A stretch of DNA of 64,000 nucleotides, taken from positions 29,450,001 through 29,514,000 of the forward strand of contig OX597837.1 of assembly GCA_951406725.2 (NCBI GenBank), given 5' to 3'. Source of the DNA: Octopus vulgaris (lineage: Eukaryota). How positions within the stretch are numbered: the stretch's first letter is position 1; every line of letters starts with the position of its first letter. Under the pieces are notes generated by a model, which saw only the letters and a list, made by a program, of their open reading frames with translations, searched no databases and was not told the origin of the DNA. Positions 3,677 to 62,880 of this stretch are shown here, piece by piece. A program made the translations under genes and the position numbers.

Positions 3677-3968
3677 TAAGAAACACACAAAATCTGTTTG
3701 ATTCACTTCAACATTTAAATTTAATTTGTCGAAATATTTTCGTCACTTTGAGACCGCGACCCGTTCATTGACAGAATTCCGTGCTAACGGGTCGCAGTCT
3801 CAAAGCGCCGAAAATATTTTGACAAATTAAATTTAAATGTTGAAGTAAATCAAACAGATTTTGTGTGTTTCTTAAATGGCTTATAAACACCTTCCACGCT
3901 GAAATTGTTTTCGTTCCAGCACACGATCTCAGATCAGGTCACTTGCTATGCAAGTACATCTCGGTAAT
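3677..3968. mobile_element. Fold-back Penelope-like (pLTR-type) insert with 12-bp TSD
   Basis: Inverted arms 3677-3765 and 3786-3874 plus about 95-nt tail; TSD CCCAGTACTTAT (3665-3676) / CCCAGCACTTAT (3969-3980); degenerate hammerhead-like fold on minus strand about 3726-3773. Confidence 0.6.
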
Positions 3969-6819: not shown

Positions 6820-8142
6820 GGATCTTTTCACTTTCATTGACAGATCGAGAAATTAATTTTTGTAACTAAACACCTTCAAACTTTGGACACTGGTAGAATG
6901 TGTCATATAAAACATCTTTTACTCTTAGCATTGTTAACAAACATTTCTATTTACGAAGTTATTTTGTGTTAAAGTTGTCGTATTTCGGTAATTTCAACCA
7001 ATCAATGACGTGTATTCAGCTGAATAAAATTACTGCTGTTGTTTGTCAACAACAACTTCCAGTGGTGTATATTTCGTTTGTCACTGTTATTTATGACATA
7101 CTAGCAGTATCGCCCGGCGTTGCTCGGGTTTGTAAGGGAAATAACTATATAAGCATTTTTAGAGATGTAAAGTATAATAGCCATCTCAATATGGCTAACC
7201 ACAAAGGGGGGTGTTACTGTAGCTTTTTACGTTCTAAGATTTAATGATACATTTTTAGAGAGTTACTTCCCTTATATAATAGCAAACAAAATGCATTAAA
7301 AATGGGAAAAAATGATGGTAAATTTTTTTTTAAATCGTAAACTCATCGTAGACGCACGCTAATACCCAGAAGGGCTCGATATGAATCACGACTATAAGAT
7401 ACTCGCTTTTGATTACACTGCACCGCAAAATGTGGGAGTAGTTAGGAATCTAAATCGTAGGAGACAGACAGCACACAACCTTACTTTTATATATAAAGAT
7501 TTCAATTCAATTACGTTCATATAAATAACCAAGTATCTGAAGCACGTTTACTTCATGGACACCACCATAATCGTTCATGCATTTCTGTCTTTTAGGTTTC
7601 TTTTTTTCATGTTTTTCAGTTACTATTTTTGGAAAGACTCCCCCCCACCCCCATTATTTTGTCAAAATTTATTGTTTTTTAAAAAATTTTTTTTTTGCCA
7701 AAATCCCAGCTTTTCGGATACAGAGATTCTGGAAAATTGCCAAAAATCGGAATTTTGAAATTTTTTGGCCCCTTTACCCCTCCCCTTCCAATTTCTTCAT
7801 TTTTCACTTTTTTCCATAACCCTAACTCTAAAACCCCAATCCTAACCCTAAAGCTAAAACCAGTACAAACACACGAATGATGTCATAAATAAGAGTGACA
7901 ACCGAAATAGACAGCACCGATAGTTGTTGGCAAACAACGGCAGTAATTTTATTCAGCTGAATACACGTCATTGATTGGTTGAAATTACCGAAATACGACA
8001 ACTTTAACACGAAATAACTTCATAAATAGAAACTTTTTTCAACAACGCTAAGAGTAAAAGATGTTTTATATGACACATTCTACCAGTGTCCGAAGTTACA
8101 AAAAATTAATTTCTTGATCTGCCGATGAAAGTGAAAAGATCC
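6820..8142. mobile_element. Long-TIR MITE of the GGATC-terminated group, interrupted by a Helitron
   Basis: Arms about 6820-7098 and 7880-8142 are reverse complements; TSD not clean. Confidence 0.7.
7101..7499 (-). mobile_element. Non-autonomous Helitron-like element
   Basis: On minus strand: A|TC start, subterminal hairpin CCCGAGCAACGCCGGG, CTAG|T end. Confidence 0.7.
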
Positions 8143-8555
8143 CAAGCATGTGTTTTGAAAAGCATTAAGTACCATACCTGTTTTCCGTAATTTATCCATA
8201 ATTATATAGAAAGAGGGGGGTAGAGAGAGACAGAGACAAACAGATAAATAGATAGATAGATAGATAGCTATGCCTCCAAAGTAATACTTGCTAGGTGATT
8301 GCTATACAGCTGATGTGATTGTTTGATACCAACTGTAAAACTGCAATGTACCAACAGGGAGAAAGAAAAGAAAAAAAGAAAGACTGAACGAAGGAAGAAG
8401 AGGAGGCAAGAAAGAAAGAAGGAAGGAAAGAATAGAAGAACAAAAAAATTGCTGGAACAGCATTTACATATAAATCAAGGTAGGCATGGACTGTCCAGAT
8501 TAAAGCTATAAATATTATAAAATATGAGAAGTAAATGATTGCCTGCTGGGCAGAC

Positions 8556-13653: not shown

Positions 13654-13960
13654 TATAAAAAATAGAAAAGAGTGAAAAAACTACAGAAGGCTTGTTTTAT
13701 AAGGTTAAACAATATATTTAAATCGTTATGTTAGAAAAATGTTATAAAATTTTGTGTATAGTAACATAGTTTTTGGAGAAATAACCGGTTTTGTGTAAAC
13801 TTTGCAAATTTCTTCATTACACAAAATTTTATAACATTTTTCTAACATAACTACTTAAATATATTGTTTAACCTTATAAAACAAGCCTTCTGTAGTTTTT
13901 TCACTCTTTTCTATTTTTTATACATCCAACCACGTGCTTTCACACACCAACTTTCTCACC
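13654..13960. mobile_element. Fold-back insert in (TA)n
   Basis: Arms 13654-13758 and 13818-13922, tail to 13960, (TA)n on both sides; spacer reads UGAAGA...AAAACCGGUU on minus strand (decayed hammerhead-like). Confidence 0.6.
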
Positions 13961-15614: not shown

Positions 15615-15781
15615 TATGTACCGAGAGTAATACAAAATCAAGCATCCAGTCAACATCAGGGTGTTTGGAGTGATCACTAGTGATGGCAATGCTATGTCTC
15701 ATTCATCTTCCCACACGGCCTCAGACTCAACACGGAGGCCTACATCAAGTGCCTGGAAGAGGTAATGCTGCCCTGGGTCAA
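15615..15781 (+). mobile_element. Tc1/mariner transposase fragment
   Basis: [43 protein letters not shown] (with frameshift), typical of the region between the first and second catalytic Asp. Confidence 0.65.
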
Positions 15782-17181
15782 TATTACCGGTTTCAATGTA
15801 TCGCATCTTACCAAACAGCATTAAACATTTTTTTAAATTTGAAGTAAAAATAGCTTGATAAATTGTTTTTACTTCAAATTTAAAAAAAATTTTTTACTGA
15901 TGCTTGATATGATGAGATACATCGAAACCGGTAATATTTTCTTTATATAATTTTTTATTAAATTTCCTCTTAAATTGAAATGTCTTACACTTACTACTGT
16001 ACTATTTCTATCTCCATCTTTTACACACACACATACACACATACTTACATACATACATATATATATAGTGAGGGCGCATGGCTTAGTGGTTAGCACATTC
16101 AGCTCATGATCATAAGGTTGTGAGTTCGATTCCTGGTGACACATTGTGTCCTTGAGCAAGACACTTTATTTCACGTTGCTCCAGTCCACTCACCTGGCAA
16201 AAATGAGTAGTACCTGTATTTCAAAGGGCCGGCCTTGTCACACTCTGTGTCATGCGGAATCTCCTTGTGAACTACATTAAGGGTACACGTGTCTGTGGAA
16301 TGCTCAGCACATTAATTTCATGAGCAAGCTGTTCCGTTGATTGTACCAGCTGGGACCCTCGTCATCATAACTGACAGAATGCTCTTATATATATATATAT
16401 ATAATCGCATACATATGTGTACTGAAAAGGTTGTTTACCTAGGCATATATATACTAATCTTTTACAAGAACAGGAGTGACAGTAGCTTTGAGGTCTTTCT
16501 TGTCAGAGTGCTTTGTGCATTTATGTGTGTTTGTAGTGTATACATGTATGTGTGTATAATGTATATATTTGTTGTAGTCAAGCTGCAACTAAGAACATAT
16601 TTCTGTTGTTACTGTTCAAAGAATTTGGTTATAAATTTTATAGGAAAGAAGAATGTGGAGTAGAGAGAAAGGTAATTAACAAATGTATTATATGCAAATG
16701 AAGCAATTACAAATTAGATGATGCAGTACTTTAAGATAATTGATGATAAGATGTAATAATGACAATAACAATATGATTGATATTTTAAAATTTAAAACAG
16801 GAAAGAAAAGAAAGAAAAAACATAAGATTTATAGACTTATGTAACAACTGTGAGTGAGAAAAGTAAAATATATTTTCAGATTTATGTATACATATATAAG
16901 TATGTAAGTATGTATGTACAGAATATAAATACAAATGTATTGATGTGCACACACACACACATACATACACTTATACACATAAATCAATCAAAAGTTTATA
17001 TTGTATGGCATTCCACACAGCTGTAGATGTCTGTTTCTTTTCATAAGCATACTACTAGCTTCTCTGAATTATTTCCTTTAGCTCATTTATGTTTAATTTA
17101 TGCAAATTACATTGGCCACAATCGTGTTCAACTTTTTTTGTATAAGTCTTAGACCCTTTACTGATAGAGAGTGGTTAGGAC

Positions 17182-18961: not shown

Positions 18962-19503
18962 TTCTTTTGTACTTTCATTTGCTCGACTGGTACATTACCT
19001 ATAGCTGATGTTTACCTGCCTGGGTCCCATCTCATATCACTTGATGTTGGATTATAGATAATTTGTCCAGTCTGAGCACTAATTGTCTGTGTCTATTACA
19101 CATCTTTCTTTTGACACACTCTTACACATCATATATATATATTATATATATATATTATACATTATATATATATATTATACATTATATATATTATATTATA
19201 TATATATATATATATATATTATATTATATATATATATATATTATATATATATATTATATTATATATATATTATATATATATATTATATTATATATATATT
19301 ATATATATATATTATATTATATATATATTATATATATATATTATATTATATATATATTATATATATATATTATATTATATATATATATTATATTATATAT
19401 ATATATTATATTATATTATATATATATTATATATATAATATATATATACACACACACAAACTCACACTCTGAAACATTGTTGAACAAGTTTTCCTTGACT
19501 TAC

Positions 19504-19801
19504 CACTTCCAAAGGCAAATCCCCAGGGTACGGATACAACCATCGAGGCAATGGAGCGGGTGAGATGGAATTCGTCGAGCAGTTCGATGTAGAAGAGCCC
19601 CATGCAGCCAAGAAACCCCATCATCATGAAAAGGTTCAGTGACATCATGACCAGCAACATCCCTTCAAACAAGCTGAAGCCCTTCTTTATGTTCTGCTGC
19701 TTCTCCTTATCGATCTCACACACATCGTCGAGTGATGCCAAGAAGGATATCTTCGATGTCGTCAGCGAATGATTTGGGATCAGTTTCTGACTGACTTGGC
19801 T
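19504..19801 (-). CDS. Internal coding exon of a monocarboxylate transporter (SLC16/MFS) family gene, TM1-TM2
   Basis: Acceptor TTTTGTGAACAG| at 19802, donor |GTAAGT at 19503; 298 nt open: SQVSQKLIPNHS...MGFLGCMGLFYIELLDEFHLTRSIASMVVSVPWGFAFGSG. Resembles the SLC16 TM1/TM2 pattern (GxFyxeLLxxFxxsRsxxSxIxS) with a phase-1 intron at the Gly after TM2. No further exon recognised in 1-19503. Confidence 0.8.
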
Positions 19802-20078
19802 CTGTTCACAAAATAAATAAATAAATAAATGGATAGATAAAAAAAATAGAATAAAATAAAAGCAAATTAAGAAAAGAACAGGGAAGAATGAGAGAAAAGA
19901 ATGAGGGAGAGAGGAATATGTAGTGAGGGATGATGTGAAGATGCCAGGGAAAGGGTGAAGAGAGAAAGAATGAGCTGAAGAGGAAAGAAAGGAAATCCAA
20001 TTCTCTCCATTTTCTTTCCTTCAAAAAAAAAAATATATATATACGCATTTTTTTCTGTCCCTGTTTCTTTTCTGCGTA

Positions 20079-20116
20079 TCTTTCTGTCGAAGAGCGTAGG
20101 CTCGAAACGTAAAAGA
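20079..20116 (+). ncRNA. Minimal hammerhead-like motif (variant core)
   Basis: UCUUU-CUGUCGA-A-GAGC-GUAG-GCUC-GAA-ACGU-A|AAAGA: perfect 5-bp stem I and 4-bp stem II, loopless palindromic stem III; core has U at position 6. Confidence 0.5.
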
Positions 20117-20902
20117 CTTGTTCTATTTCTATTCCTGAGCGCCATACTAATACAATTGTTTGTTTGTACTCCACCTACCTTCGTCTTTTGTTTATTTTCA
20201 TAAACCTTCCTGATACAAGAACATGGACTAAAATCTTCAAGAAAATACAAAATAACAAAATAATTTCAATGTCATGATTATCAAAAATGAAACCGGTGGA
20301 CAGCCACAATACTCTTTCATTTAAAATATGTTAAACCTTGATTGATACGAAGATCATTGCCCTTATGCTACTAAATAGTTTAGAAGCATAGGAAAGATGG
20401 AATTAAAAAGTTAGTATAAAGTGGTGGAAGGAGAAAAGTGGGAATAAGATAGAGAAGTGGTGGTGGTGGTGGTGGGATATAGATTATGAATGCTGTTTGA
20501 GAATGGGGGAATTACATAGCTACCCCTGAATACTTAAATATGATGATGGTACTAGGTTCAGGTAGGCCCCAGACTTCCAGCAGCTTGGCCTGGGTTCACA
20601 AAACTTAATTTTAATGTAACCTCCATTCTGTATTTATGAATGAAGGGGAAAATAATGAGTGTACCTTCTCCTTGACTTACGACTGAGTTCTGGTCGTATG
20701 TTGGATTTATATTTTTCGACATTGTTTTCATTGTAGGCGCAGGAGTGGCTGTGTGGTAAGTAGCTTGTTTACCAACCACATGGTTCCGGGTTCAGTCCCA
20801 CTGCGTGGCACCTTGGGCAAGTATCTTCTACTATAGCCTCGGGCCGACCAAAGCCTTGTGAGTGGATTTGGTAGACGAAAACTGAAAGAAGCCTGTCGCA
20901 TA

Positions 20903-27077: not shown

Positions 27078-28036
27078 TTTTCATAGGTCCCGGTCCGAAA
27101 GTTCTCCTGAACCGGCGGGTCAGGTGTTCCTCGTCGACGCCCAGATTCTGCCCGAGAACGTCGTCGCACTTCCCCTCCACTAATCCTCTATAGAACGCCT
27201 TTGTGGGGTTGAAGTCACACAAGTTTGGTCCCGGACGGCAGAGTTGCTTGAGAGCAAGGCAGCACTCACGGTGCCATTCGCCTAGCCTCGGTCTCTGTTT
27301 GATCCACGACTGCAGTTCGGCCAAAGAGACGACTGCGGGAAAGCGCGCCGCACAAACGGCTACCACACCTGTTCACCGTTGTCTATAAAGCGCCGGAGAT
27401 GTCGCAGTCTCTGCGCATGTCTGCGCATCATCAACCACGGCGTGCTTAGCCCTCCATTTAGCGGGTGCTGACAGCAAATGGATCGCCTAACCATAGGAAC
27501 GTTTCCCTTCCACAAAAGGCGGAAGTGTATGTGTTCCAGTTTGGTGATGGTAGGGTCGGGACAAGGCACAACGTTCAGACGGTAACGATGACGGATGCGA
27601 TGTACGCGTTCGCCACCTTCAACCCGACCTTTTAGGAATAGCTTCCTCTGGGGCCATTGCTGGGTGAGTGTCCACCACGGTCGTTATCTTGCCCCAGTTC
27701 TTCATTTGGAGGTCCGGACCGAACCAGACTCCAAGCAACTTAACCGGTCCGTCGGAACAGCGTCCCACGATGGAGACGCTGTCGGAAGGCATGGGCTTGC
27801 TTCTCCAGGTGCCGAGCCGCAAGCTCACCGACTTTTCCCCGGTTAATTTTTGCTCCCGTTACTGTTTCGTATTCTTTTAGTGTTTCGCTGACCAGGTCGA
27901 TATGTCTGTGGCTCAACACTATGACGATGACGTCGTCCGCGTATGCAGACACGCTCGTCCCGCATCCCAGCTCTGGCGGGATGCCCGTTTGCGTCGCCAG
28001 CGTCCGCAGTAGTGGCTCAAGAGTCAATACGTACAG
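27078..28036 (-). mobile_element. Tx1/L1-clade LINE reverse transcriptase fragment
   Basis: LYVLTLEPLLR...SAYADDV...YETVTGAKINRGK, PVKLLGVWFGP, FRLLWKG...LNGGL; frameshifted; embedded between GATA-type arrays. Confidence 0.85.
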
Positions 28037-28620
28037 AAATGACAGATAGACAGGTAGCTAGACGGATAGATAGACGTATAGGTAGACGGATAGATAGACG
28101 GATAGATAGACGGATAGATAGACGGATAGATAGACGGATAGGTAGACGGATAGGTAGACGGATAGGTAGACGGATAGGTAGACGGATAGGTAGACAGATA
28201 GATAGACGGATAGGTAGACAGATAGATAGACGGATAGGTAGACAGATAGATAGACGGATAGGTAGACAGATAGATAGACGGATAGGTAGACAGATAGATA
28301 GACGAATAGGTAGACAGATAGATAGACGAATAGGTAGACAGATAGATAGACGAATAGGTAGACAGATAGGTAGGTAGGTAGATATGTAGACAGATAGGTA
28401 GGTAGATAGGTAGACAGATAGGTAGACAGACAGACAGAAAGACGGATAGGTATGTAGGTAGACAGACAGACAGATAGACGGATAGGTAGACAGACAGACA
28501 GATAGATAGACGGATAGGTAGACAGACAGATAGATAGACGGATAGGTAGACAGACAGATAGATAGACGGATAGGTAGACAGACAGACAGATAGATATATA
28601 GACGGATGGATAGATGAATG
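28037..28620. repeat. GATA-derived 12/24-bp satellite (AGACGGATAGGT)
   Basis: Direct inspection. Confidence 0.9.
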
Positions 28621-29572: not shown

Positions 29573-30866
29573 GGTTAATATCTAGTTTAACAGTCGGCCA
29601 CCAAAACAAACACAAAGAGAGGTGTAATAGGTGTGAAAATTTTTTTTTAAATGTGTAGAAAACGAGTCGGAAAACCGAAATTTGCGCAAGTGAACTGGGG
29701 GTTGTGGACAGGACTTTCGGAAAATTCCCACGATCCGATTTTTTTTCCCCCTCATAAACTTTCAGGAAAATTTTATATCTTTTAATGAAATTTTATATAA
29801 AGAAAACTTTTCAAATAGCATAGATAACGATTATGAAGAAATTTGTGAGGGAAAATGTTTTTTTTCCAGGGTGGGGGTGTGTGAGGAGATTCGGATCAGG
29901 AAAACCACATAAGTTCGTTTTTTACCCCTCCTCCCACCTTCCATCCCCCCTCCGGACCGATTTTGGCCAATTTCTTGCACTTAGAAACAAAGGGAGGAGC
30001 CTTTTCGGTGAAAAGGAAAAAAAAAAAAAAAAAAGTTGTAAATGATTTCAGAGCAAAAAGTGTGATTTAAGGGAGAATTTGACTGTAGTTTCTAGCACAT
30101 CCCATGACAACCCTCCTCGTTTCTTTCTCGCGCTCGCAAAGAAATTTGAAAATTTATGATATTTTTTCCAACCCCACTCCCCGTCCTTGATTGTTTTTGT
30201 TTATAATTTAAAATACTGGAGAGCCTGAGGTCATTTCTGGCATTTATCCACAGTGATTTTTTAAAAATAGGTATGTAAAGATAATTAATTTTAATAGCAT
30301 ACATTTCTGTTAGAAAATGTATTTTCTTACACACACACGGCCTCGCTTCATTAAGGTTGGTATAAACATTTAAATTAACATTTTTTTTTGTTGATGCTTA
30401 TATCCCACCAATGGAGCATGCGGGAGAGTAAAAAAAATAACCATAAATTTTCCAAACCTTTTTTTCATAAAAAGCTACTCTCCATCATTTCGAAAACTGT
30501 GGTGAAAAAACAATTTGAAAAATCCCTGTCAAAACGGCGAAATCCCAACTTATGTGGTCCTCATGATCCGAAACTCCTCTCCCCAGCTCCTTAGAAAAAA
30601 TTTTCCCCCGCCACAAATTTCTTTATAATTGTAATCTATGCCGTGGGAAAAGTTTTTGTATAAACTTTCATTAAAAGATACCCATTCTTCTGAAAGTTAT
30701 GAGGGAAAAAATCGGATCGTATGAATTTTCCGAAAGTCCTTTTTCCAACCCCCGGTTCGTTTGCGCAAATTTTAGTTTTCTGGTTCGTTTATTACGCATT
30801 TTGTTGCCTATTACACTTGTTTTTGTTTTTTGTTTTGGTGGTCGGGTGTTAAACTAGATATCAACC
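29573..30866. mobile_element. Old long-TIR DNA element (GG termini)
   Basis: GGTTAATATCTAGTTTAACA...TGTTAAACTAGATATCAACC; diverged arms over 300 bp; flanks ATAAAATA/GTAAAGTA (6/8). Confidence 0.65.
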
Positions 30867-32627: not shown

Positions 32628-34234
32628 TTTTTCGACGTTTTTATCCGCTTCTTTCTACTTGGACTTCTGTAGTTATTTCTTGTATAATTTCGTTATTTTG
32701 TTCAAATGCTTAAATTACAGATTTTAGTCGATAATTTAAGTTGATAATTATAGTGAGTGATTTATGAATTATATATTGAAGATACAAAACATTTGTACAT
32801 ATTGAAGATATAAAACATCGCATAAATACTATATATGTATGTGCGTGTATGAAGTATATATGCGCGTATATAATCCACGTTTAGTCGCCAACACACACAT
32901 ATATAAATGATGTTAGTGTGCAATGTCGTTCTATATATATAGACATATAGTGTATTAATTGTCGATATTTTTTGCATCCGCACAATAACTTTACCTTCGA
33001 ATTTGACGTAGTTCCTGCTTCTTTTCGTTTATTTAATATATTTATACCTATTTTCGCTTTCTTCTTGTTGTTAATAACTCTTTACTTGAAGCCTCCTTTC
33101 GACAAATATCTCATATAAAATTACATAAAACCACACCACAGCAACTAACAAAGCACACTTCTTACATTAACCTAAGAGGCGAACATAAAAACGTAAAAAT
33201 ATATATATTTTTCCGCTAAGTATTTAGCGCGGACCTTCCTCCAGTTGATTTTCTTTTTTATTATTTTAATTTTCACTTGTTATTTTTTACAAATACTTTT
33301 CGTTTCTCTTTGTTTTACGTCCGCAGTTTTACCTTTTCCCTCCCTCTCTCTCTCTCACGCCTTATTTCTCTCTACCTTTCTCTTTTTCTCACGCTTTTTC
33401 CTCTCTCTTTCTCTCTCTCACGCTTTTTATCTCTCTTGCTTTCTCACTTACACTCTCACTAACTCTGCCGCGTTCTCACTCTTCCGTCCTCACTCCTTCC
33501 CTCTCACTCACACTCATTCTTACTCTCTCTCTCTCTCACTTTAACACGTTCTTTCATACTCTTACCGATACTCTTACTTTCTCTGCCGCATTCTCACTCT
33601 CTCATTCTTTCACACTTTCTCTCTCACACTCTCGCTTTTTTCACACTATCACTCTCTCACTTTGTCTCACATTCTCACTCCCTCTCTCTCTTTCTTTATC
33701 CAATCTCCCCCTCTCTCTGTCTCTCCCATTGTGTTTTCTAGAAATTAAAATAATTCTTAACTCACCAACAACTTGTGATGTTGTGATGTTTATTCTGATT
33801 TGTACATCACTGCATAATTATTTACCACTTGTTGTCCACTACTTATACAGTCAATAGTTTTCTAAACAAATATTAATTAATTAATTAATCGCTTAAATGT
33901 ATTACTATCATTAAATTTCGTAATTACGTACACACGTCAAATATATTATTTCTGAAGTATAATTACATTTTATTCACATTTGTAATAACATTTTCCTCCA
34001 TAAAAAAAGTAAAATGCAACTATTTCAAATTTCCAAGACTAAAGCCGTAAAATAGTACAAATAACAATGTTTTCTTTACTAAATATTGATAGTAATACTA
34101 ATGCTTTCATTGTTAGAAATATTATTAAGAATTCACAAACATAAAAAGCAAGACATCAGCTTTCTTCCTTTCTTTCTCTCTCTCTCTCTCTCTATATATA
34201 TACGTGTGTGTGTGTGTATACACACATATACATT

Positions 34235-34273
<39 letters not shown>

Positions 34274-34289
34274 ATACACACATATACAT

Positions 34290-34324
<35 letters not shown>

Positions 34325-34338
34325 ATACACACATATAC

Positions 34339-34384
<46 letters not shown>

Positions 34385-34387
<3 letters not shown>

Positions 34388-34884
34388 AATGAAATGGATA
34401 AATGAATTATCTTGTTACGGATTATTCAAATTATAACCGATACCTGGGTAGCAAAAATCACAACAGAAAAATCACGGTTGAGGTTACGACCATGGGGTAT
34501 CGCAACCGTGCCTTAGTGCGGATAATTGAAGTTTTATATTTAGTGAGGGAAGAAATGGAGCTGAACGAAGATTTTACAAAATTCCTTTTTATTATTTTCT
34601 ACACATGTTTCAAAGGCTGCAAATTCCCTAATTCGGATTGAATAAGGAGACCATTTTGCAGCATTCTCTTCAGGAAAATCCAGGAACTTAAATCTCCAAA
34701 CAAATGCGCAGCAAGCTTTTCGAACAAACGCTCCCTAGGATTTTCCTGAAGAGAATGCTGCAAAATGGTCTCCTTATTCAATCCGAATTAGGGAATTTGC
34801 AGCCTTTGAAACATGTGTAGAAAATAATAAAAGGAATTTTGTAAAATCTTCGTTCAGCTCCATTTCTTCCCTCACTAAATATAT
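34385..34884. mobile_element. Fold-back hammerhead-bearing insert in (TA)n
   Basis: Near-perfect arms 34535-34681 and 34739-34884, about 150-nt tail on left, flanked by (TA)n. Confidence 0.7.
34740..34825 (+). ncRNA. Type I hammerhead ribozyme motif (mirror copy on minus strand at 34594-34679)
   Basis: AUUUUC-CUGAAGA-[long stem II GCUGCAAA/UUUGCAGC]-GAA-ACA-UG-UGU-A|GAAAAU: 6-bp stem I, intact core, GUA triplet. Confidence 0.7.
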
Positions 34885-34901
34885 ATATATATATATATAT
34901 A

Positions 34902-35107
34902 CTTTATTTAAAGCAGCAGAAAATTCAACAAAATCTGTTACTCTGAGTTTCTCGTTGCCGTTCATCAGAGAAACTGTCTGATGAACGGCAACGAGAAACT
35001 CAGAGTAACAGATTTTGTTGAATTTTCTGCTGCTTTAAATAAAGCATATTACTCTACCACTGGTATTTGAGTACTCTTTTTTCCACCTTGTTTCACATTT
35101 ATGTGTT

Positions 35108-35110
<3 letters not shown>
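34902..35110. mobile_element. Fold-back hammerhead-bearing insert in (TA)n
   Basis: Arms 34902-34969 and 34977-35044, tail to 35110, (TA)n on both sides. Confidence 0.7.
34974..35011 (+). ncRNA. Minimal type I hammerhead ribozyme motif
   Basis: CUGU-CUGAUGA-ACG-GCAA-CGA-GAA-ACUC-A-GAGU-A|ACAG; one mismatch at the base of stem II. Confidence 0.7.
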
Positions 35111-35146
<36 letters not shown>

Positions 35147-35315
35147 CACATATATATATACAGGTATTGTGATGCAAACAGCAAAAATAGAACTCAAAAT
35201 ATGAATATATCTATATCTTTATAATAGTAGAAGCAACGGAGTAACTCAATGGCCGAGAGTTTGGTAAGTGCCAACGCATGGAACTCCCGGATTTTGAGTC
35301 ATTCTGCTAACTTTG

Positions 35316-35375
<60 letters not shown>

Positions 35376-35611
35376 GTGTATACGCATAAATAAGTTAACA
35401 TAATATAATGTCTAAAAGTTGATGAACCACCTATTGATCGCCTCCATTTTCTTATTGCTCTATAAATTAATGGTCAAATATCTCTTTACCTTCACCCATT
35501 TAGTACACTATGTAATGTAATTGCAATGCAATAAAAAACACTTGTGTATTAATAATTGGGTATTCAACCAGCAGTATATTGGATAGATATTATCCCTTAG
35601 TTGGTTGGTTG

Positions 35612-35913: not shown

Positions 35914-36690
35914 TATAAATTGGCTGATAGGGAAGACAGAGTGTACTGCAAGCTTTATGTAGCACTTTGATCATTTCGGCTCACATCTACACCTTGTTGG
36001 TGGGGAACGCTATAATGGAATCGAATGCATCCCACAGTGCAGACGACACCTCATCAAGTTACATCATCCTGCTACACACAATAGCGAAATGTAATATTAT
36101 AACACTGTAGGGTATTATGCAACCAGATCAGGTTTCTTCTGCACTGCGGAGTGCGTTCGATTCCATTATATCGGTCCCACTCACTAGGGGGCAGTGCAGA
36201 TCGTGGATCTTTTCGGTTTGAACGGCAGTTTTTAACATAATTTCTAGGGAACTAAAAAATTTTAAACTTCGTATACTGGTAGAATGTGTTTATAAAACAT
36301 CTTTTTCTCTTGGCTTTATTGAGAAAATTCTATAGTTTGTAAGATATTTGTTGTTGTTTTTCCTTCAATTTCTGCAATTTCAACCAATCACTGACGTCTA
36401 TTGAGGTAAAAAACATTCTGTGCCTAATGAATATGTCCCTCGTTTAAGAAACAGATTGGGTTTATTTACATTTCTGAAGAAAAAAAGATACCCTTCGCCC
36501 CATCCCTAACCAACCCTAACCCTAAAATAGATTGAACTGCAATAGATCGATACTAGGGTCATAATTACGGGTGACAATTTCATATGACACCGCTAGAAAA
36601 AACTGCCGTTCAAACCGAAAAGATCCCAGACCGTCATGCTAAATAAAGCTTGGAGTACATTCTGTCTTCCCTAGTCAGTCATTTAATATA
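35914..36690. mobile_element. Palindromic MITE hosting the 36205 insertion
   Basis: TAGGGAAGACAGAGTGTACTGCAAGCTTTA / TAAAGCTTGGAGTACATTCTGTCTTCCCTA plus inner inverted pair ATAATGGAATCGAA / TTCGATTCCATTAT. Confidence 0.55.
36205..36626. mobile_element. Merlin-like MITE, same family as 2833
   Basis: Same TIRs and body; TSD CAGATCGT/CAGACCGT; nested in another palindromic element. Confidence 0.8.
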
Positions 36691-36874
36691 CAGTAAACGT
36701 GCACCGAGAAATTCCTTGCGTTGATCCTACGAAGAAAGTGCAGAACCGCGGATGACGCCGAGTAGTCGTAAGTGGTAAATGAGCCCTCAAAGTACACTAC
36801 TAGGGACATATCCAAAACAAGGCTTGGATTCTACATTTTAAAGTCTCCTATCTAAACTTTAATTTTACACACAC

Positions 36875-36914
36875 AACTGTCCGACGAACGGGAACGTGAA
36901 ACTGAGTAACAGTT
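36875..36914 (+). ncRNA. Minimal hammerhead motif, same family as 34974 (core U4->C)
   Basis: AACUGU-CCGACGA-ACG-GGAA-CGU-GAA-AC-UGA-GU-A|ACAGUU, followed by the same tail as the 34974 element (AAGCATATTACTCTACC...GAGTACT...TTCCACCTTGTTT). Confidence 0.55.
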
Positions 36915-38184
36915 CTGTGATAATTTGGCAGCTTTAATAATAAGCATATTACTCTACCTTTGGTATTCGAGTACTATTTTTTTCCACCTTGTTTTGCACT
37001 TATGTGCTCCCCTGTCTGCATGCATGCATCTATCTAGTTAGCTATCTGTCTGTTTGTCTATCTATCTATCTATCTATCTAGTTAGCTAGCTAGCTATCTA
37101 TCTGTGTCTGCGTGTGTGTGTCCCAGTATCGACCAGACTATCATCAGACGTCATACATCGCTGGTCACAATGCGCTTCGCATTGTTGTAGCTTTCGAATG
37201 GTACCATCACCTGTATAGCCAGGCAGAGTGGCCAACACTCCTGAACGGGACACTTATCTGTGATAGGGTTACTAATTTATCGGTGAGTGGACTGGTACAA
37301 CATAAAATCAAATACACATCGCACTACCAGTCTGGGAATCGAAACCGCGATCTCGTGATCGTTTGCTCAACAATCTAACAACAAGACCACACGCCTTCAC
37401 ACACACAATATTGGTTTCAAATTTTGGCACAAGGCCAGAAATTTTGGGCTTTAGTCGATTACTTCGACCCCCAGCGCTGAACTGGTACTTATTTTATCAA
37501 CCCCGAAAGGCAAAGTCCACCTTGGCAGCATTTGAACTCAGAACGTAGACAGACAAAATGCCCTTAATCATTTTGCCCGGCGTGCTAACGGTTTCCAGCT
37601 CACCACCTTGCACACAACACACACACACACACACGCACAATATTAAACGGGTATTTTTCCACTTGGGTCACTTAAACACAACAATTAACAAAATAATTAA
37701 CAGCTAAACTTTGTTTTACTCTTTTACTTGTTTCAGTCATTTGACTGCGGCCATGCTGGAGCACCGCCTTTAGTCGAGCAAATCGACCCCGGGACTTACT
37801 TATTCTTTGTAAGCCTAGTACTTATTCTATCGGTCTCTTTTGCCGAACCGCTAAGTTACGGATTCGTAAACACACCAGAATCGGTTGTCAAGCGATGTTG
37901 GGGGGGGGGGGGCGGTGACAAACACAGACACACAAACACATATGTATATATATATATATACATATATACGACGGGCTTCTTTTCAGTTTCCGTCTACCAA
38001 ATCCACTCACAAGGCTTTGGTCGGCCCGAGGCTATAGTAGAAGACACTTGCCAAGGTGCCATGCAGTGGAACTGAACTCGGAACCATGCAGTTCGTTAGC
38101 AAGCTACTTGCCACACAGCCACTCCTAATGTTTTACAATTATAAGCGATTTTAATCAATTTTTTTCCCTTGGCAATTTTTCCCA

Positions 38185-38581
38185 GTTTTTTAAAATAATT
38201 TCCACGTAACTAAAAAATTTTAAACTTCGTATACTGGTAGAATATGTTTATAAAACATCTTTTTCTCTAGGCTTTATTGAGAAAATTCTATAGTTTGTAA
38301 GATATTTGTTGCTTTTTTCTTCAATTTCTGCAATTTCAATCAATCACTGACGTCTATTGAGGTAAAAAACATTCTGTGTCGTATGAATATGTCCCTCGTT
38401 TAAGAAACAGATTGGGCTTATTTACACTTCTGAAGAAAAAAAGATACCCTTCCCCCCACCCCTAACTAACCCTAACCCTAAAATAGATTGAAAGCAATAG
38501 ATCGATACTAGGGTCATAATTATGGGTGACAATTTCATATGACACCGCTAGAAAAAACTGCCGGTCAAACCGAAAAGATCC
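38185..38581. mobile_element. Truncated copy of the 2833 MITE family
   Basis: Same body and right TIR; left TIR missing. Confidence 0.75.
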
Positions 38582-39735
38582 AAATTTTATCACGAATTAA
38601 CTTCTTAACACACATTTTAAAAAATTTTCATGCAAAATTATTATTTTTTCAAAATATATTTTGGCTCTGTATATAAGGAAGAATATAAACGGAAATTATT
38701 TTGGATCAGTTATGATTTACTATGAAGTTACGTGGCTGTGTGGTAAGTAGCTTGTTTACCAACCACATGGTTCCGGGTTCAGCCCCACTGCGTGGCACCT
38801 TGCGCAAGTGTCTTCTACTATAGCCTCGGGCCAACCAAAGCCTTGTGAGTGGATTTGGTAGACGGAAACTGAAAGAAGCCCATCATATATATGTATATAT
38901 ACGTATGTGCGTGTATGTTTGTGTTTCTGTGTTTGTACCCCTAGCATTGCTTGACAACCGATGCTGGTGTGTTTACGTCCCCGTCACTTAGCGGTTCGGC
39001 AAAAGAGACCGATAGAATAAGTACTGGGCTTACAAAGAATAAGTAAGTCCTGAGGTCGATTTGCTCGACTACAGGCGGTGCTCCAGCATGGCCACAGTCA
39101 AATGACTGAAACAAGTAAAAGAGAGTAAAGAGTAGCATGAAATTACAGTATCGTTCATGCTCAGACGGAGCTAATTTACGGTATAAATTACCTTACTTTT
39201 TCTTCGTCTGACTATGTTTTGTAATCTTCCTTAAAAATCTCCACGTACCTTCTGTAGTACGCTTCAAAAGTTATACCCCCCTCTGGGTTATAACTGAATT
39301 CTGTTCAAGGAGCGGCGAAATGCGTAGCCGTATTTCGTCTGTCTTTATGTTCCGTGTTAAAATTCCGCCGAGGTCAACTTTGCCTTTCATCCTTTCGGGG
39401 TCGATAAATTAAGGACCAGTTACGCACTGGGGTCCATCTAATCGACTTAATTCGTTTGTTTGTCCTTGTTTGTCCCCTCTGTGTTTAGCCCCTTGTGGGT
39501 GATAAAGAAACAAATATTCCAAACGAACTAGCCAACGGACACCTTCCGACTTCACTATGAACTCAACTCAAACTAATACACAAACGTTCTCCGACTGTTA
39601 CTATTCATAATCGCTCGGTCCAGTCTATTTCTCGCAAGGGGGAATCGTGACACTCATCACAAAATCTCCTCTTTTGAGATTTCGACTGTGAAGTGAAATT
39701 TATTTGATATTTTATTTGATTTTGATTTTTCCAGC

Positions 39736-40274: not shown

Positions 40275-40469
40275 ATATATTTGCCATCTCAACATGGCTA
40301 ACTACTAAGGGTGGGTGTTACTGTAGCTTGTAGCCTTAGGAGAACACCGTTTCCTGCAGGCTTTAGGCTTAGGCGTGCCTAAAGCCAGCTGGAGGAGATG
40401 TTCTCCTGGGGCTACAAGCTACAGTAACACCCACCCTTAGTGGTTCGCCACGTTGAGATGGCAAATATA
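40275..40469. mobile_element. About 195-bp hairpin MITE
   Basis: TATTTGCCATCTCAAC...GTTGAGATGGCAAATA; almost fully self-complementary; TA flanks. Confidence 0.7.
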
Positions 40470-44076: not shown

Positions 44077-44822
44077 GGATCTTTTCTTTTTGAACGGCAC
44101 TTTTCAACACAATTTCTAGTTAACTAAACACTTTTAAACTTCGTATACTGGTAGAATGTTTCAAAATAAAACATTTTTTCTCTTGGCTTTCTTGAGAAAA
44201 TTGTAATTTGTAAATTTAACGTAGTTTAATTTTTCGAATTTTAACCAATCCTATGGCCTCTATTGAGCTAAAATCATTTGCTGCGTCTAAAACTGAGACA
44301 ACATCCTGTCACTAACCCTCACCCTAACCCTAACCCTAAATTTTAGCCTTTCGTTTTTGTTTTCTTAATTGTTAAATTAATTTAATTGTTACGCGTGTGT
44401 CTAAAATTATTCGTTTTGTTTTTGTTTTGAGTTTTTGCTTTCGTTTTAGCCTTTCGTTTTTTTTTTCTTAATTGTTATCCTTAAATTAATTTAACAATTA
44501 AGAAAACAAAAACGAAAGGCTAAAATTTAGGGTTAGGGTTAGGGTGAGGGTGAGGGTTAGGGTTAGGGTTAGAGTTAGGGTTAGTGACAGGATGTTGTCT
44601 CAGTTTTAGACGCAGCAAATTATTTTAGCTCAATAGAAGCCATAGGATTGGTTAAAATTCGAAAAATTAAACTACGTTAAACAAACAAATTACAATTTTA
44701 TCAAGAAAGCCAAGAGAAAAAAATGTTTTATTTTGACACATTCTACCATTACACGAAGTTTAAAAGTGTTTTTAGTTAACTAGAAATTGTGTTGAAAAGT
44801 GCCGTTCAAAAGGAAATGATCC
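44077..44822. mobile_element. Merlin-like palindromic MITE with internal (CCCTAA)n/(TTAGGG)n
   Basis: About 300-bp TIRs starting GGATC; TSD CTCAATTC/CTCAACTC. Confidence 0.75.
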
Positions 44823-46633: not shown

Positions 46634-46912
46634 TTAAATATTTGTTCTTGACTGTAATATACAATATTTTTTTGCAATAATTCCACCCCTTTTTGCTAAG
46701 CGGCAAATACTGTCATCTGATTCACCCATCTGTCGAATCTTCCCGCAAATCGCATATGTTTTGTTTGAACCTGTCATTCTGCTTGTAGTAACATCAACTT
46801 CAGCGATGTTTATTTGTACAGAAGCATGATCTTTGGTAGCAATAATGCTGTTACTGGCTGAACATTTCCTTGGGATATACATATCCAAGAATTCACCTGC
46901 TTCGTTCTGCAT
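46634..46912 (-). pseudogene. RPS21: Intronless retrocopy of 40S ribosomal protein S21 (eS21)
   Basis: [40 protein letters not shown]...[22 protein letters not shown] is clearly eS21. No introns; substitutions at normally conserved sites (SASNR->SASNS, TGR->TSR); about 9 aa C-terminal extension; candidate TSD TGTCAT at 46628-46633 and 46967-46972. Confidence 0.85.
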
Positions 46913-47227
46913 AATCCTTTCTTTATTCTAAGAAAATCTTAGTCAAAATGGACGACCGTGTAGTATTGTCATCATTCTATTTTTGGCAATCTTATTTTTA
47001 TAACGAGAGGAATAAATTGTCGCTTATTCAACTTACTCAAATCTTATTGTTTGCTATCTCTTTCTCCGTTATAAATTTATCTTCCGATTAATATGCTGTC
47101 AACGCGTAAGTTTTCGTCGAATACACCCAACATTCTTTGTACATGTATGTATGTATGTATGTATGTATGTATGTATGTATGTATGTATGTATGTATGTAT
47201 GTATGTATGTATGCAATGGAAAATACT

Positions 47228-47950
47228 AATGAGTTCTTGAGAGCAAACCCAACACCAGATTCTCAACACTGACCCTTAGGTAGGCCTCTCCAAAAGATAG
47301 TATATCCATAAGTAGGTTTATTTATTTGACCTTCACCAGAGAGACGAGTTTCAGAGCGTGCAACTATATCAAGGGAATATTTCTTAAGTTCACATGCACT
47401 AAATTCAGTACGCTTTTCTGGCTTCTTGTTGAAATTATCATAGAGAAGTGTGCGCACATTCCAACAGCTAAAATTCAGAGGATGTTTATTTTTACTTTTT
47501 CTTGAAGATTGTTTGACTACAGTGGCAGGATGACGACTGGGTCTAGCCTGTGATACACTGGGACACCTGCCGATCCAGACTTGTTTCCCTGACGTTCCCC
47601 AGTCTTTTTTGTCATTTACAAAATATGTTTGAGATATTTTTAGAGTAAGTTACAAGTGCATTTTTAGGTATCTGCCAACCAACTACTTCAATGATTTTAC
47701 TAAGATTTGGTGTACAGGAAGTACCTGTGCAGATGAATAATTTTCAGTGGGTGTAGTTTGCACTGCACTACCCCCACCTAGTGGCCAAGAAGACTTTCGC
47801 CGGTATGACATGAAAACTGACAAAACCAGGAACTTCCAAGGCCTCGGGTTTTATTTCGGAGATTTCCTTCTCCTAGGTAGATTACCAACCAAGGTTAAAG
47901 AGCTTCTACCTGCCCATGAAGTAAGCTATCCTATTCCAGACAACAAACCG
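47228..47950 (-). mobile_element. RTE-clade LINE 5' end (APE endonuclease fragment + 5'UTR)
   Basis: CWNVRTL...RTEFSACELKKYSLDIVARSETRLSGEGQ...GYTIFWRG...GVGFA; upstream boundary approximate. Confidence 0.8.
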
Positions 47951-51701: not shown

Positions 51702-51839
51702 ATTTAACCACTTGTTATCCTTAGGATTACGGTTGTTTCGCAGCCTTCATCATGTAATAATAATTTCAGTCTATAATAAATTATTTTTACATGATGAAGG
51801 TTGCGAAACAGCCATAATCCTTATGATAAGTGGTTAAAT
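51702..51839. mobile_element. Older fold-back insert with hammerhead-like remnant
   Basis: Arms 51702-51757 and 51787-51839; motif UGAUGA-A-GGCUG-CGAAA-CAGCC (consensus of the two arms). Confidence 0.45.
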
Positions 51840-52100
51840 CACAATGCGCGTTTCTGGATTAGCCCATGGGCAAGTAATATACTCTGTAGGGTGCAATTAA
51901 TTAGTGATATACTCTGAATATCTTTCTGTCTGTACTTCGGTACTAATATTTGTATTCGTCTATAGTTGTGTATGCATTTTGATTTTGACTCAACCCGGTG
52001 CCTTACTATTTATGTGCCAGATTCAACAGAATACTAAGATATATAACAACAACAACAATAATAATAATAATAATAAGAAGAAGAAGAAGAAGAAGAAGAA

Positions 52101-57384: not shown

Positions 57385-57690
57385 TTGAGGGTACAACTAT
57401 ACATAGATACCACACGTTAAGAGGGACCAATGCGGTCAAAACTACTAAAATAAACAAAATTTTACCGAATGCAAAACTTCAAAGCAAGTCATTTAAAAAA
57501 AAGAATTTAGTTACATATCACCTGTGATTTCGCAATTAATGCAGAATATGCATTCCATGTTCATCAGTGCAACAAACTCAAGACATATAAGAAAAAACAT
57601 AACGTTACAAACCTGATAGCCAACCGTAGAATTCGTCGTAGCATGTACGAACGTTTATCTTTACATATCTATGAAAATGGCGGGCATGTA
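57385..57690 (-). mobile_element. Hammerhead-bearing insert in (TA)n
   Basis: About 300-nt unique insert between TA tracts containing the 57510-57573 hammerhead. Confidence 0.55.
57510..57573 (-). ncRNA. Type I hammerhead ribozyme motif (intact core)
   Basis: GUUGCA-CUGAUGA-[stem II containing AAUGCA/UGCAUU]-GAA-AUCAC-AG-GUGAU-A|UGUAAC: 6-bp stem I, full core, 5-bp stem III, AUA cleavage triplet. Stem II base pair is A.C. Confidence 0.75.
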
Positions 57691-57833
57691 TGTATATATA
57701 TATGATATGAGGGAATATAATTCCAAACTTACAAGGAAAAATTCAATTTAGAAATACTAAATCAAATTTCACAAAATATAATATATATATATAGGTGGTG
57801 TACAAAACAAACAGATGTATTAGTATAACGCTC

Positions 57834-57867
<34 letters not shown>

Positions 57868-58127
57868 TCGAAATGGGGAGTAGATGAAACAGGGACAACT
57901 GAGGAAGGGGAATATTCTTTATGTTGCATGTCTCGTTTCTCTGTTTGTTTTTTTTCGTTGTCCCCCAAAACGTTCGTTTCTATGTTTTTGTTTTTGTTTT
58001 CGTTTCCCATTATATTCAACGTTTTTTTGGGGGGGATGTCCTGTTCCCATATATGCATGAATATATACATATATGTATGTATGTACATATATTTATGCTA
58101 ATATGCATATATTCATATATTATTTAT

Positions 58128-58269: not shown

Positions 58270-58742
58270 AATATTGCAAATAAGAAAATGGAGAAGCACA
58301 ATAGTTGGTTCATCAACTTTAGGACATCAACTTATTTATTCATTAAAATGGTAATTATAACGACATGCATGCATATAGCATATTATTTTATGCATATAAA
58401 ATAAGAATACAAGCAATTATTAAAAAACATGAATATAAATTATTAAAATCAATTTCAGCTGCTTTAAATTCATTTATCCTAAATATTAATTCTTTAATAT
58501 AAGTATCACCCAAGGATAATTTAAATAAATAAGTTATACCTATAACACCTAAGGGTACTTATATCAAAGAATTAATATTTAGGATAAAGGAATTTAAACA
58601 GCTGTAATTGATTTTAATAATTTATATTCAATTTTTTTGATAATTGCTTGTATTCTTATTTTATATGCATAGAATATGCTACATGTATGCATGTTGTTAT
58701 AATTATCATTTTGATAAATAAATAAATTTTAATATCCTAAAG
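58270..58742. mobile_element. Fold-back insert beside TA/TG microsatellite
   Basis: Diverged arms 58317-58505 and 58556-58742 (contains AAACAGCTGTA, a stem-III-like palindrome); left tail is the reverse complement of 35409-35458. Confidence 0.55.
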
Positions 58743-58871: not shown

Positions 58872-59380
58872 TGGCTGCCCCCTCGTTATCAAGTATGGCC
58901 ATTGCACGAAGCTTAACTGTTACTGGTGCTGTGATCGAATGTGACTTTTTAGCCCAGCTAAAGATCTACAATGTCTTGTACAGAATTAGCAACTAAGACC
59001 TTTACTGGTAATAGCCGGCTATAGTTGTAACTGGGCTTTGCATGTACCTTTGCATGTCGTTTAAGTCCTCCTGCCGAATTACACTCTCTTCCACATGCCC
59101 AACAAATAGGATTAGTATGGTGTGTTACACCATCACCAGTGGCCAGGTTGTCACTCATCTGTCTCGTTTTATGACTACGGAGATGACTCATGAGTCCAGC
59201 TTTACTGAGGTAGGGCCTTACACAGACATTGCATGTCAGAATCAAAGGAAGACCCTTCAATTCTGGAAGTGTAACAGCGATGCCCTTTCTGACATCCCTC
59301 CTTACTTTCTCATATATACGCACATACTCACACTCATACGCGTGTACTGGGGTATTGGTTTATGTACATATGCCAATACC
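58872..59380 (-). mobile_element. RTE-like LINE 3' fragment with two C2H2 fingers
   Basis: CNVCVRPYLSKAGLMSHLRSH and CWACGRECNSAGGLKRHAKVH. Confidence 0.65.
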
Positions 59381-61202: not shown

Positions 61203-62880
61203 TAAAAGAGACGTTCATCACTTGCGATTGTGTACGGGTTTGTGACATGTACCGTGTTTTCATTATTCATGTGGGGGACATGTGGCTCTGGTGTTAGAGT
61301 GTCTGTAAAAACCCGTTTTACCCTGTCAGCTGTTGGAAAGGACGCGGTAAGGTCGAGGGGACATCTCACAGAGTCATTTCGAAGAAATTCGTTAGTCCAC
61401 GAAGCAATATTCTGCGGAACCGAAGATGTAATAATCTGTTGCCAAGAGGTCATCGGCGGAAGATTGAAGAAATACGATCGAAGTCTGTTGATGTAGAGAA
61501 CAGGATCTTGGGAAGATAAGTCCGCTGGGGCCAGCATCTGACCCGATAAGGGTAACGGTACTCTGTAAAGTGAGACCTGGACGCTATACACACGCCAAGA
61601 GCGTCGCCTAAACATCTTTCACCTGCGCTGCCTCCGAAAAATCCTCCGCATCAAATGGCAGAATCATATCCCCAACAAAGATGTCCTCAGGCAAGCAGGA
61701 ATACCAAGCATGTTTGCACTCCTCACACAAAGACGTATGAGATGGCTTGGGCATGTTAGCCGTATGAAAGATGGCAGAATCCCCAAGGACATACTCTACG
61801 GAGAGCTTGCTAGGGGTACTAGGTCTGTGGGTAGACCGATCTTACGTTACAAGGATGTTTGCAAAAGAGACATGAAGGCCTGCAACATCAATATTAGCGG
61901 TTGGGAGGCAGTTGCCGGCAACCGTGGAGAATGGCGACGTACCGTAAAAGAGGGAATACAAAGGAGTGACAGAGAGAGAGAGAGAGGAGAAATGGAAAGA
62001 CAAGAAAAGACGTCAACAAGAGACTATGGCATTACAACCAGCCAGGATCAGTCTTCGCTACATTTGCGGTACCTGCCAGAGGGAGTGTTTGTCCAGGATA
62101 GGACTACACAGCCACAGCAGGAAATGTATCAGGACATGAAATATAAAAGCCGGACTAGACTACTTTATGCGCAACTCCATTGTCTCCCGAGACAGAAAGG
62201 ATGCTAGTACCAATACTCTGTAAAGTAGCTCTGCCGGAGAGTATCCAAGATCCTTCGTGACTGCTGAACGGCAACCCAGAAGAACAATAATACGACCGAA
62301 GTCTGTTGACGTAGAGAACAGGATCTTGGGAAGATAAGTCCGCTGGGGCCAGCATCTGACCCGATAAGGGTAACGGTACTCTGTAAAGCAGCTCTGCCAG
62401 AGAGTATCCAAGATCCTTCTTGACTGCTGAATGGTAGCCCTGAAGAACAATGAGTAGGTACTCGCTCCATCGATGTTGGTCAAGATAAGTATGCATCACA
62501 GCCTTCAGTTGGACGGCGACGAGCAGACAGAAACGTTAGCACGCCGGGCGAAATGCATAGCCGTAATTCGTCTGTCGTTACGTTGTGAGTTCAAATTCCG
62601 CCGAGTTCGACTTTGCCTTTCATCCTTTCGGGGTCGATAAATTAAGTACCAGTTACGCACTGGGGTCGATGTAATCGACTTAATACCTATGTCTATCTTT
62701 GTCCCTTCTATGTTTAGCCCCTTGTGGGTAATAAAGAAATAGGTGGAAGCATTCCACCATACCATTTGAAGCTGGGTGGTAACTAGTTGTCCGAATGCGC
62801 CGCGTACCTAGAATTTTCGAAAGCTCATGGAAGTGCTGGGATTCGAACTGCCTACCATGGTCAGTGGTGATCGTGGTATG
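61203..62880 (-). mobile_element. Gypsy integrase remnant interrupted by RTE and SINE
   Basis: RIRTTSYHPASNGMVECFH (about 62753-62810), KDLGYSPAELLY, FLRNDSVRCPL. Confidence 0.75.
61569..62212 (+). mobile_element. 5'-truncated RTE LINE
   Basis: SETWTLY...FHLRCLRKILRIKWQNHIPN...RRMRWLGHVSRMKDGRIPKDILYGEL..GRP; TACTCTGTAAAGT repeated on both sides. Confidence 0.85.

Follow-up and report, generated by a model that had tools for sequence, protein, structure and literature searches.

Two short inserts, termed A and B, lie side by side in (TA)n microsatellite DNA of the 64-kb window (the whole stretch of DNA that was analysed). Each of them folds back on itself, carries a type I hammerhead ribozyme motif and lacks an open reading frame (ORF), and thus the question arises as to which kind of element leaves such hairpins behind and by which route. 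A previous sequence-only reading had described two adjacent inserts bounded by (TA)n, each built as inverted arm, spacer, arm and tail with a type I hammerhead. The coordinates, the arm identity and the descriptor searches agree with this description (Table 1).

Anatomy of A and B and the other loci of the window

Table 1. Positions in the window of A, B, their flanking tracts and the other loci discussed
Feature	Position	Strand	Description
Left microsatellite	34226..34384	.	(TA)n/(TG)n
Element A, whole	34385-34883	sense -	Fold-back, type I hammerhead, one-sided tail
A tail	34385..34534	-	One-sided 3' tail, 150 nt, outside the arm pair
A sense arm	34535..34684	-	Arm pairing
A hammerhead	34594..34679	-	Type I; 6-bp stem I, 55-nt stem II region, self-complementary 8-nt helix III
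A spacer	34685..34733	-	49 nt; extra 5' sequence of the sense copy
A inverted arm	34734..34883	+	Without tail; second hammerhead copy at 34740-34825
Tract between A and B	34884..34901	.	(TA)n
Element B, whole	34902-35110	sense +	Fold-back, type I hammerhead, one-sided tail
B inverted arm	34902..34969	-	Without tail; its hammerhead is without the 5' strand of stem I
B spacer	34970..34976	+	7 nt; holds most of the 5' strand of stem I
B hammerhead	34974..35011	+	Type I, Hydra-clade type
B sense arm	34977..35044	+	Identical to the inverted arm
B tail	35045..35110	+	One-sided, 66 nt; bulged hairpin at ~35050-35073
Right microsatellite	35111..35160	.	(TA)n
Locus 3677	3677..3968	+	Fold-back with 93-nt tail, outside (TA)n; no more of a hammerhead than its 3' half
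Locus 13654	13654..13960	+	Fold-back flanked by (TA)n tracts, with ~40-nt tail; hammerhead core absent
Locus 20079	20045..20205	+	Minimal hammerhead (20079-20116) with one core change; non-inverted
Locus 36875	36872..37010	+	Solo, non-inverted B-family member outside (TA)n; U4C in the core, tail hairpin as in B
Locus 51702	51702..51914	+	Older fold-back, degenerate hammerhead, possible 10-bp target-site duplication
Locus 57385	57386..57690	-	Hammerhead-bearing 3' end (57573-57510), non-inverted, (TA)n on both sides
Locus 58270	58270..58742	-	Older fold-back without hammerhead core

A and B are very young head-to-head fold-backs. The arms of A are identical over 151 columns except for two 1-base gaps, and the hammerhead of its tail-less arm has an identical twin on the minus strand at 34679-34594. 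The spacer of A is shared by its family and is joined to the left arm in contigs covering 34631-34715, and the tail, whose folding z is -2.3, is contiguous with the arm in other copies (contigs span 34417-34561 and 34476-34559). The middle of this tail (34434-34539) recurs in copies whose flanks differ on either side of it, with loose ends at 34434 and 34539, which suggests a conserved core across A subfamilies. In B, an A-A mismatch closes stem II of the hammerhead. The tail-less arms of the two inserts face each other across the short (TA)n tract, and the four ends of the inserts are all at most 1 nt away from such a tract, compared with a background of 1.6% for random non-tract positions at a distance of up to 5 nt; inside (TA)n the target-site duplications of both inserts are unreadable. 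A further insert between (TA)n tracts (35163-35316) adjoins B, and a piece of the 58270 family (35400-35456) lies just beyond it; no hammerhead was found in either.

No ORF combining reverse transcriptase (RT) and GIY-YIG endonuclease was found in A, in B or in the rest of the 64-kb window, just as the sequence-only reading had recognised neither a Penelope RT nor a GIY-YIG ORF. A and B are insertion products, not autonomous elements.

The hammerhead motif is enriched in the window over dinucleotide-shuffled sequence. With the strict type I descriptor there were five matches, namely both copies in A, the one in B, 57573-57510 and a questionable match at 38426; local dinucleotide shuffles averaged 0.07, and none of 200 reached five. 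The relaxed descriptor gave four (A twice, 20079 and 36875) against 0.88, a count reached by none of 60 shuffles, and it misses B because stem II of B closes on a mismatch. The match at 38426-38514 was discarded as probable chance: the symmetry of its helix III is poor and it lies within another repeat family. A scan against Rfam returned no Hammerhead family among the 150 matches listed of 341, where microsatellite-driven miRNA matches dominate.

Both A and B show the trait of endonuclease-bearing (EN+) Penelope-like elements (PLEs) of a type I hammerhead near the 3' end with a self-complementary helix III, the dimer energies being -8.0 kcal/mol for A and -9.4 kcal/mol for B. In free folding, the hammerhead was not the minimum-energy form of any monomer tried (z from +0.35 to -1.05), which is expected for dimer-type motifs, yet is no evidence for them. 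The hammerhead of B also fits a pattern common to the published Hydra-2_Amil hammerhead (one match; none in 100 shuffles). Thus, B joins a Hydra-type hammerhead to insertion into (TA)n; A shares the (TA)n insertion, and its hammerhead type is not diagnostic.

The sequence-only reading had extended these observations to a window-wide system of about eight (TA)n-targeting hammerhead fold-back families, which proved to be overstated, since none of the eight other loci cited combines a fold-back, an intact hammerhead and (TA)n. Four of them are fold-backs (3677, 13654, 51702 and 58270), none with an intact hammerhead core; three match a descriptor without folding back (20079, 36875 and 57385); and at 52469 the two core boxes lie ~80 nt apart and fail the strict and the relaxed descriptors. 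Within these eight loci, partly picked for such flanks, 5 of 16 ends lie at most 5 nt from (TA)n, and at 3677, 36875 and 51702 there is no (TA)n within 600 nt. Locus 36875, formerly counted as a separate family, is a second member of the B family (81% over 136 nt). The fold-back at 3677-3968 has a 12-bp target-site duplication with one mismatch, outside any microsatellite, as a retro-insertion should show.

Other repeats of the window were recorded as well, and its interspersed repeats look like those of an octopod. More short pieces lie between (TA)n tracts at 57695-57835 and 57866-58040; 57702-57787 corresponds to the 3' end of 52469 and 57792-57846 to the 20040 family, so that PLE-like ends are stacked in this microsatellite cluster. 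Further fold-backs are present at 15780-15938, 40276-40469 and 29573-30866, and no target-site duplication was found for the first two. The elements at 44077-44822 (a large palindrome), 36205-36626, 2833-3238, 38187-38582 and 6811-8151 form one family, with common terminal inverted repeats and internal (TTAGGG)n-like tracts, that looks like non-autonomous DNA transposons. The segment 24132-25590 is a 1.46-kb inverted duplication over interspersed repeats (92% overall, arms 98-99% complementary), that is, a local inversion or an assembly artefact.

Decayed LINE-like coding sequence was found at 27743-28057 (minus strand; RVT_1, E 1e-4) and 58961-59359 (minus strand; C2H2 fingers). The presumably LINE-like stretches 61569-62204 (plus strand) and 47266-47649 (minus strand) have no Pfam match, and none of the four pieces (27743, 61569, 47266 and 58961) matches the PLE protein of locus L046 described below. 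A hydrophobic open stretch at 19430-19780 (minus strand) presumably resembles a membrane-transporter exon and has no Pfam match; the window may lie within a host gene. An intron-less open frame at 46637-46927 (minus strand) matches ribosomal protein S21e (Pfam PF01249, E 2.5e-36) and is probably a retrocopy.

Further copies, relatives and the clade of B

Both A and B are multicopy. The 726-nt stretch containing them is covered by 13,740 contigs in X1 and 4,160 in X3, public assemblies from two organisms, where summed contig depths are not copy numbers, and by 9 reads in the raw-read run X21. Run X8, which may be RNA, contributed 596 contigs that have no bearing on expression. Copies of B stop at 35049 and are followed by (TA)n in 79 contigs of X1 and 38 of X3, and five of the nine X21 reads contain tail-only copies of B behind (TA)n. 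The 15 inversion joints listed (of 30) for the B family show 12 distinct inversion points, at sense positions 34984-35049; for A, one example of a variable joint was found. A fixed arm end with a one-sided tail was seen for family B, with tails above the published 30-40 bp. These fixed 3' ends, together with the variable inversion centres of the B family, are not the pattern of a DNA transposon or MITE.

Variants of the A and B families cannot be phased. At 34604, an A-family variant with 60% of the X3 depth makes helix III a perfect palindrome; at 34663, A>C (34%) completes stem II and the commoner variant keeps the mismatch. A pattern specific to the tail of B had no match in metagenome and viral contigs. 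Neither the Craig 2021 supplement nor the 2026 octopus repeat supplement contained short motifs of the window; line breaks may hide matches there, and the latter comes without a sequence library.

A hammerhead pattern of B's type retrieved at least 120 metagenome loci with the same build as B, which look like animal-host DNA, and none in viral contigs. One of their families, F2, matches Hydra-2_Amil by eye. Among the loci listed, 3' ends in the two main related families fall at two discrete points, ~30 and ~100 nt beyond the hammerhead. Of the 15 two-armed loci that could be scored, 14 carry the tail on one arm and not on the other (three more are too short). A direct repeat of at least 10 nt is found at both junctions in 10 of the 12 scorable complete fold-backs listed, two of which represent one site, with seven more too short to score. 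The flanks at the arm ends of the listed relatives are 82% AT compared with a background of 63%. A long (TA)n starts in just 7 of 77 flanks, and therefore strict (TA)n targeting is not general.

Sixteen of the at least 120 loci listed match the protein of L046, a locus that comprises a hammerhead, a tail, (TA)n and a 714-aa ORF with RWK, DKT, YRDDG and CxCX5C motifs. The RWK, DKT and CxCX5C motifs define the Hydra clade, and by motif reading against the published Hydra proteins the ORF of L046 appears to be a Hydra-clade PLE ORF. L001, L053 and L046 had no informative match in Pfam or PDB. An apparent PLE ORF, which the sequence-only reading proposed to look for upstream, was found among the relatives, but not in the window. 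In four long copies of family F1 (L014, L024, L069 and L104) the sequence runs unbroken from the stub into the C-terminus of the endonuclease. In L046:250-530, a pseudo-LTR with TATA box, hammerhead and tail lies directly upstream of (TA)n, which is followed by the intact-looking ORF; promoter-bearing tandems may form when (TA)n at the 5' end of an element receives a further insertion.

B and the relatives share 73% over ~100 nt (E 6e-8), a value that includes the fetching motif, the relatives having been picked by the hammerhead motif of B itself. A profile HMM of the part downstream of the hammerhead did not match B, and a covariance model of the tail ranked the hairpin of B 12th of 12 (E 9). 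A tail hairpin pattern, partly drawn from B, gave two matches against 0.25 expected, a number that 4 of 100 shuffles reach. The bulged tail hairpin can be aligned and folds alike in B, in 36875 and in the relatives, with few compensatory changes. As regards the stem covariation named in the sequence-only reading, one double change is present in A1 and two in A2, but 27 and 43 of 500 shuffles, respectively, score as high. Taken through its relatives, B probably belongs to the Hydra clade. No relative of A was found among the at least 120 loci listed or in the supplement searched for A.

Origin of the inserts and competing explanations

We consider it very probable that A and B are two independent and recent insertion products of endonuclease-bearing PLEs, with B belonging to the Hydra clade. 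This rests on the anatomy of the inserts, on their presence in many copies, on 3' ends that stay fixed while the inversion points vary, and on relatives of like build that are linked to a Hydra-type ORF. In this view, an autonomous element located elsewhere would supply the RT/GIY-YIG protein, which would nick both strands of a (TA)n or AT-rich target, and reverse transcription would be primed from each nick at two fixed internal RNA sites downstream of the hammerhead, so that one cDNA would carry a tail and the other would not. The two short cDNAs would then be joined head to head, giving inverted arm, spacer, arm and tail; this joining step and the presence of the autonomous partner in the Octopus genome are what we infer. 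The hammerheads would be passengers, copied uncleaved, in stubs without ORF and promoter. Frangieh et al. (2024) (PMC11167929) report for a Poseidon-clade element that its protein cuts both strands of AT-rich DNA and extends them in vitro, that two internal RT starts delimit the tail, and that uncleaved RNA is used, hammerhead cleavage not being needed. How PLEs make inverted copies and tails is described as still open in PMC8557442 and PMC11167929.

The 5' ends of the relatives were compared in the two main related families listed, using copies whose hammerhead is complete. Once duplicates had been removed there were 96 distinct junctions, 39 of them contig ends. Of the 57 true 5' ends, 51 lie 0-12 nt upstream of stem I (846 nt at risk), one lies at 13-50 nt (1168 at risk) and five at 51-400 nt (1559 at risk), so that the rate of ends is ~70-fold lower beyond position 12. 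In 7 of the 16 copies examined, from four families, a TATA match lies at -34 to -39, which puts the boundary ~30 nt downstream of TATA; several F1 and F2 copies have a one-base variant at this position. Both 5' ends of B itself are within 4 nt of stem I and fit the boundary, and so does the inverted arm of A, the sense copy of A running ~50 nt further. Many junctions of family B lie inside the hammerhead. A splice acceptor was rejected as the cause of the boundary, since there is no AG at this point in F1 or F2 and no shared upstream exon.

The simplest reading of this pile-up would be that the boundary is the transcript start. The sequence-only reading had seen in these inserts severely truncated PLE insertions in (TA)n; the interpretation as PLE 3' ends with an inverted copy is supported and for B can be narrowed, through its relatives, to the Hydra clade, but 'severely truncated' may be the wrong picture because the 5' ends of the relatives pile up at one boundary. 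We tentatively propose, as a possibility that could well turn out either way, that the mini fold-backs are complete run-off ('strong-stop-like') cDNAs from the 5' pseudo-LTR: transcription would start ~8 nt upstream of stem I and ~30 nt below TATA, the protein would bind the tail hairpin and prime twice, and the cDNAs would reach the 5' end of the RNA and be joined head to head. If this is true, the ends of the stubs map the transcription start and both RT starts of any Hydra-clade family from the genome alone, and run-off explains why hammerhead-sized stubs swamp the full copies.

The sharp 5' boundary below a TATA box looks new. In the largely open-access literature searched there was no study of the A and B families and no run-off, strong-stop or twin-priming origin for PLE stubs. 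For Drosophila Penelope, a TATA-less promoter with a start further upstream has been reported (PMC2377424; PMC4209133), and a TATA box in the pseudo-LTR is on record for a rotifer element. The fixed 3' ends, the one-sided tail and the sharp 5' boundary provide a concrete and cheap test of the two-priming run-off model, and further families join the little-sampled Hydra clade.

The sharp boundary suits a short master sequence as well as a transcript start, and thus the stubs might derive from short non-autonomous masters that depend on PLE proteins, such masters being either read-through copies or solo pseudo-LTRs equipped with a TATA box. Since insertion would proceed by unchanged chemistry, this explanation overlaps with the preferred one. 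Short copies far outnumber those linked to an ORF (the 16 matches to the L046 protein mentioned above), and non-autonomous Chlamys derivatives and the action of pLTRs in trans have already been published. However, the F1 long copies run unbroken from stub to endonuclease, and therefore no separate non-autonomous sequence is needed; we regard such masters as rather unlikely.

Less probable still is an origin of the fold-backs by self-priming, with an antisense strand as template, in place of two priming events on the sense RNA. Arkhipova et al. (2013; PMC3846280) proposed self-priming to explain head-to-head repeats in PLEs, and the junctions in the relatives often hold short rearranged pieces. 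Nevertheless, self-priming alone leaves unexplained the two fixed 3' ends and the restriction of the tail to exactly one arm in the scorable relatives, features for which the two-start result obtained in vitro (PMC11167929) accounts.

A third explanation, also contemplated in the sequence-only reading, is that of non-LTR retrozymes, i.e., tandem hammerhead units that self-cleave, circularise and reinsert after rolling-circle replication. It would fit the ORF-less state, the type I hammerheads with self-complementary helix III, the two back-going junctions into 34971 found in X1, and the pLTR origin proposed for retrozymes (bioRxiv 10.64898/2026.07.22.740005). Yet retrozymes are defined by tandem units (PMC7229834; bioRxiv 10.64898/2026.07.22.740005), and because the window holds no tandem array of A or B units, their arrangement being head to head, the proposal found no support. 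In addition, the termini are away from the cleavage site, and the U4C core change makes up 58% of the X1 depth at 34979 in the B family. We therefore hold this origin to be very improbable.

Finally, MITEs or fold-back DNA transposons with chance hammerhead-like sequence would account for long near-perfect inverted repeats and TA flanks, but we give them practically no weight, and for B they are largely ruled out, since one arm end is internal with a tail beyond it instead of fixed inverted repeats at both termini, inversion points differ among the B-family copies, solo and tail-only copies exist, and the relatives are linked to an RT ORF. Thus, ORF-less hairpins of this kind should be annotated as Penelope-like products and not as MITEs.

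Comparison with known systems

The fold-back architecture of PLEs is already described in print, and each single trait, namely the inverted 5'-truncated copy, the tail on one side, the bias towards (TA)n and the hammerhead, has been published for PLEs. PLEs are abundant in octopus, where they have been reported to make up 6.83% of the genome in 190 families (PMC13282606; PMC8967140).

Non-LTR retrozymes (PMC7229834; bioRxiv 10.64898/2026.07.22.740005) resemble A and B in being ORF-less, in their type I hammerhead and in a probable pLTR origin, but they are by definition head-to-tail tandem repeats, whereas A and B are inverted single insertions. A and B also resemble the minimal, dispersed hammerheads known from metazoan PLEs (Cervera and de la Pena, 2014; PMC4209133), which occur singly or as opposite-strand pairs, have a palindromic helix III and form many divergent families per genome. 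These pairs are described as 100-700 bp apart, and the dispersed motifs are ascribed to truncated PLEs (PMC4209133). The anatomy of the ends and the target analysis given here for A and B are not in the parts of that paper compared.

The C-terminal EN+ PLEs of the Hydra clade (Hydra-2_Amil, Hydra-2_Ajap and Hydra-1_Obim; Craig et al., 2021; PMC8557442) share with the inserts the hammerhead near the 3' end and the preference for (TA)n. There is a further likeness in the 4-bp self-complementary helix III, and stem I and core of B match Hydra-2_Amil. The bulged tail hairpin is similar by eye, but homology of the tail was not significant in independent tests. In contrast to these elements, A and B are without ORF, and in A the stem II region measures 55 nt and the tail 150 nt. 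By eye, neither A nor B resembles Hydra-1_Obim or the octopus Naiad 3' ends.

The complex insertions of EN+ PLEs (PMC3846280; PMC8557442, legend of Fig. 2; PMC11167929) share the head-to-head inverted copy with the tail on one arm, as well as a target-site duplication where the target is not a microsatellite (3677-3968 and the relatives). The inserts described here differ from them in their tails of 66-150 nt compared with the 30-40 bp published, in both arms being cut down to the hammerhead-bearing end, and in the sharp 5' boundary of the relatives.
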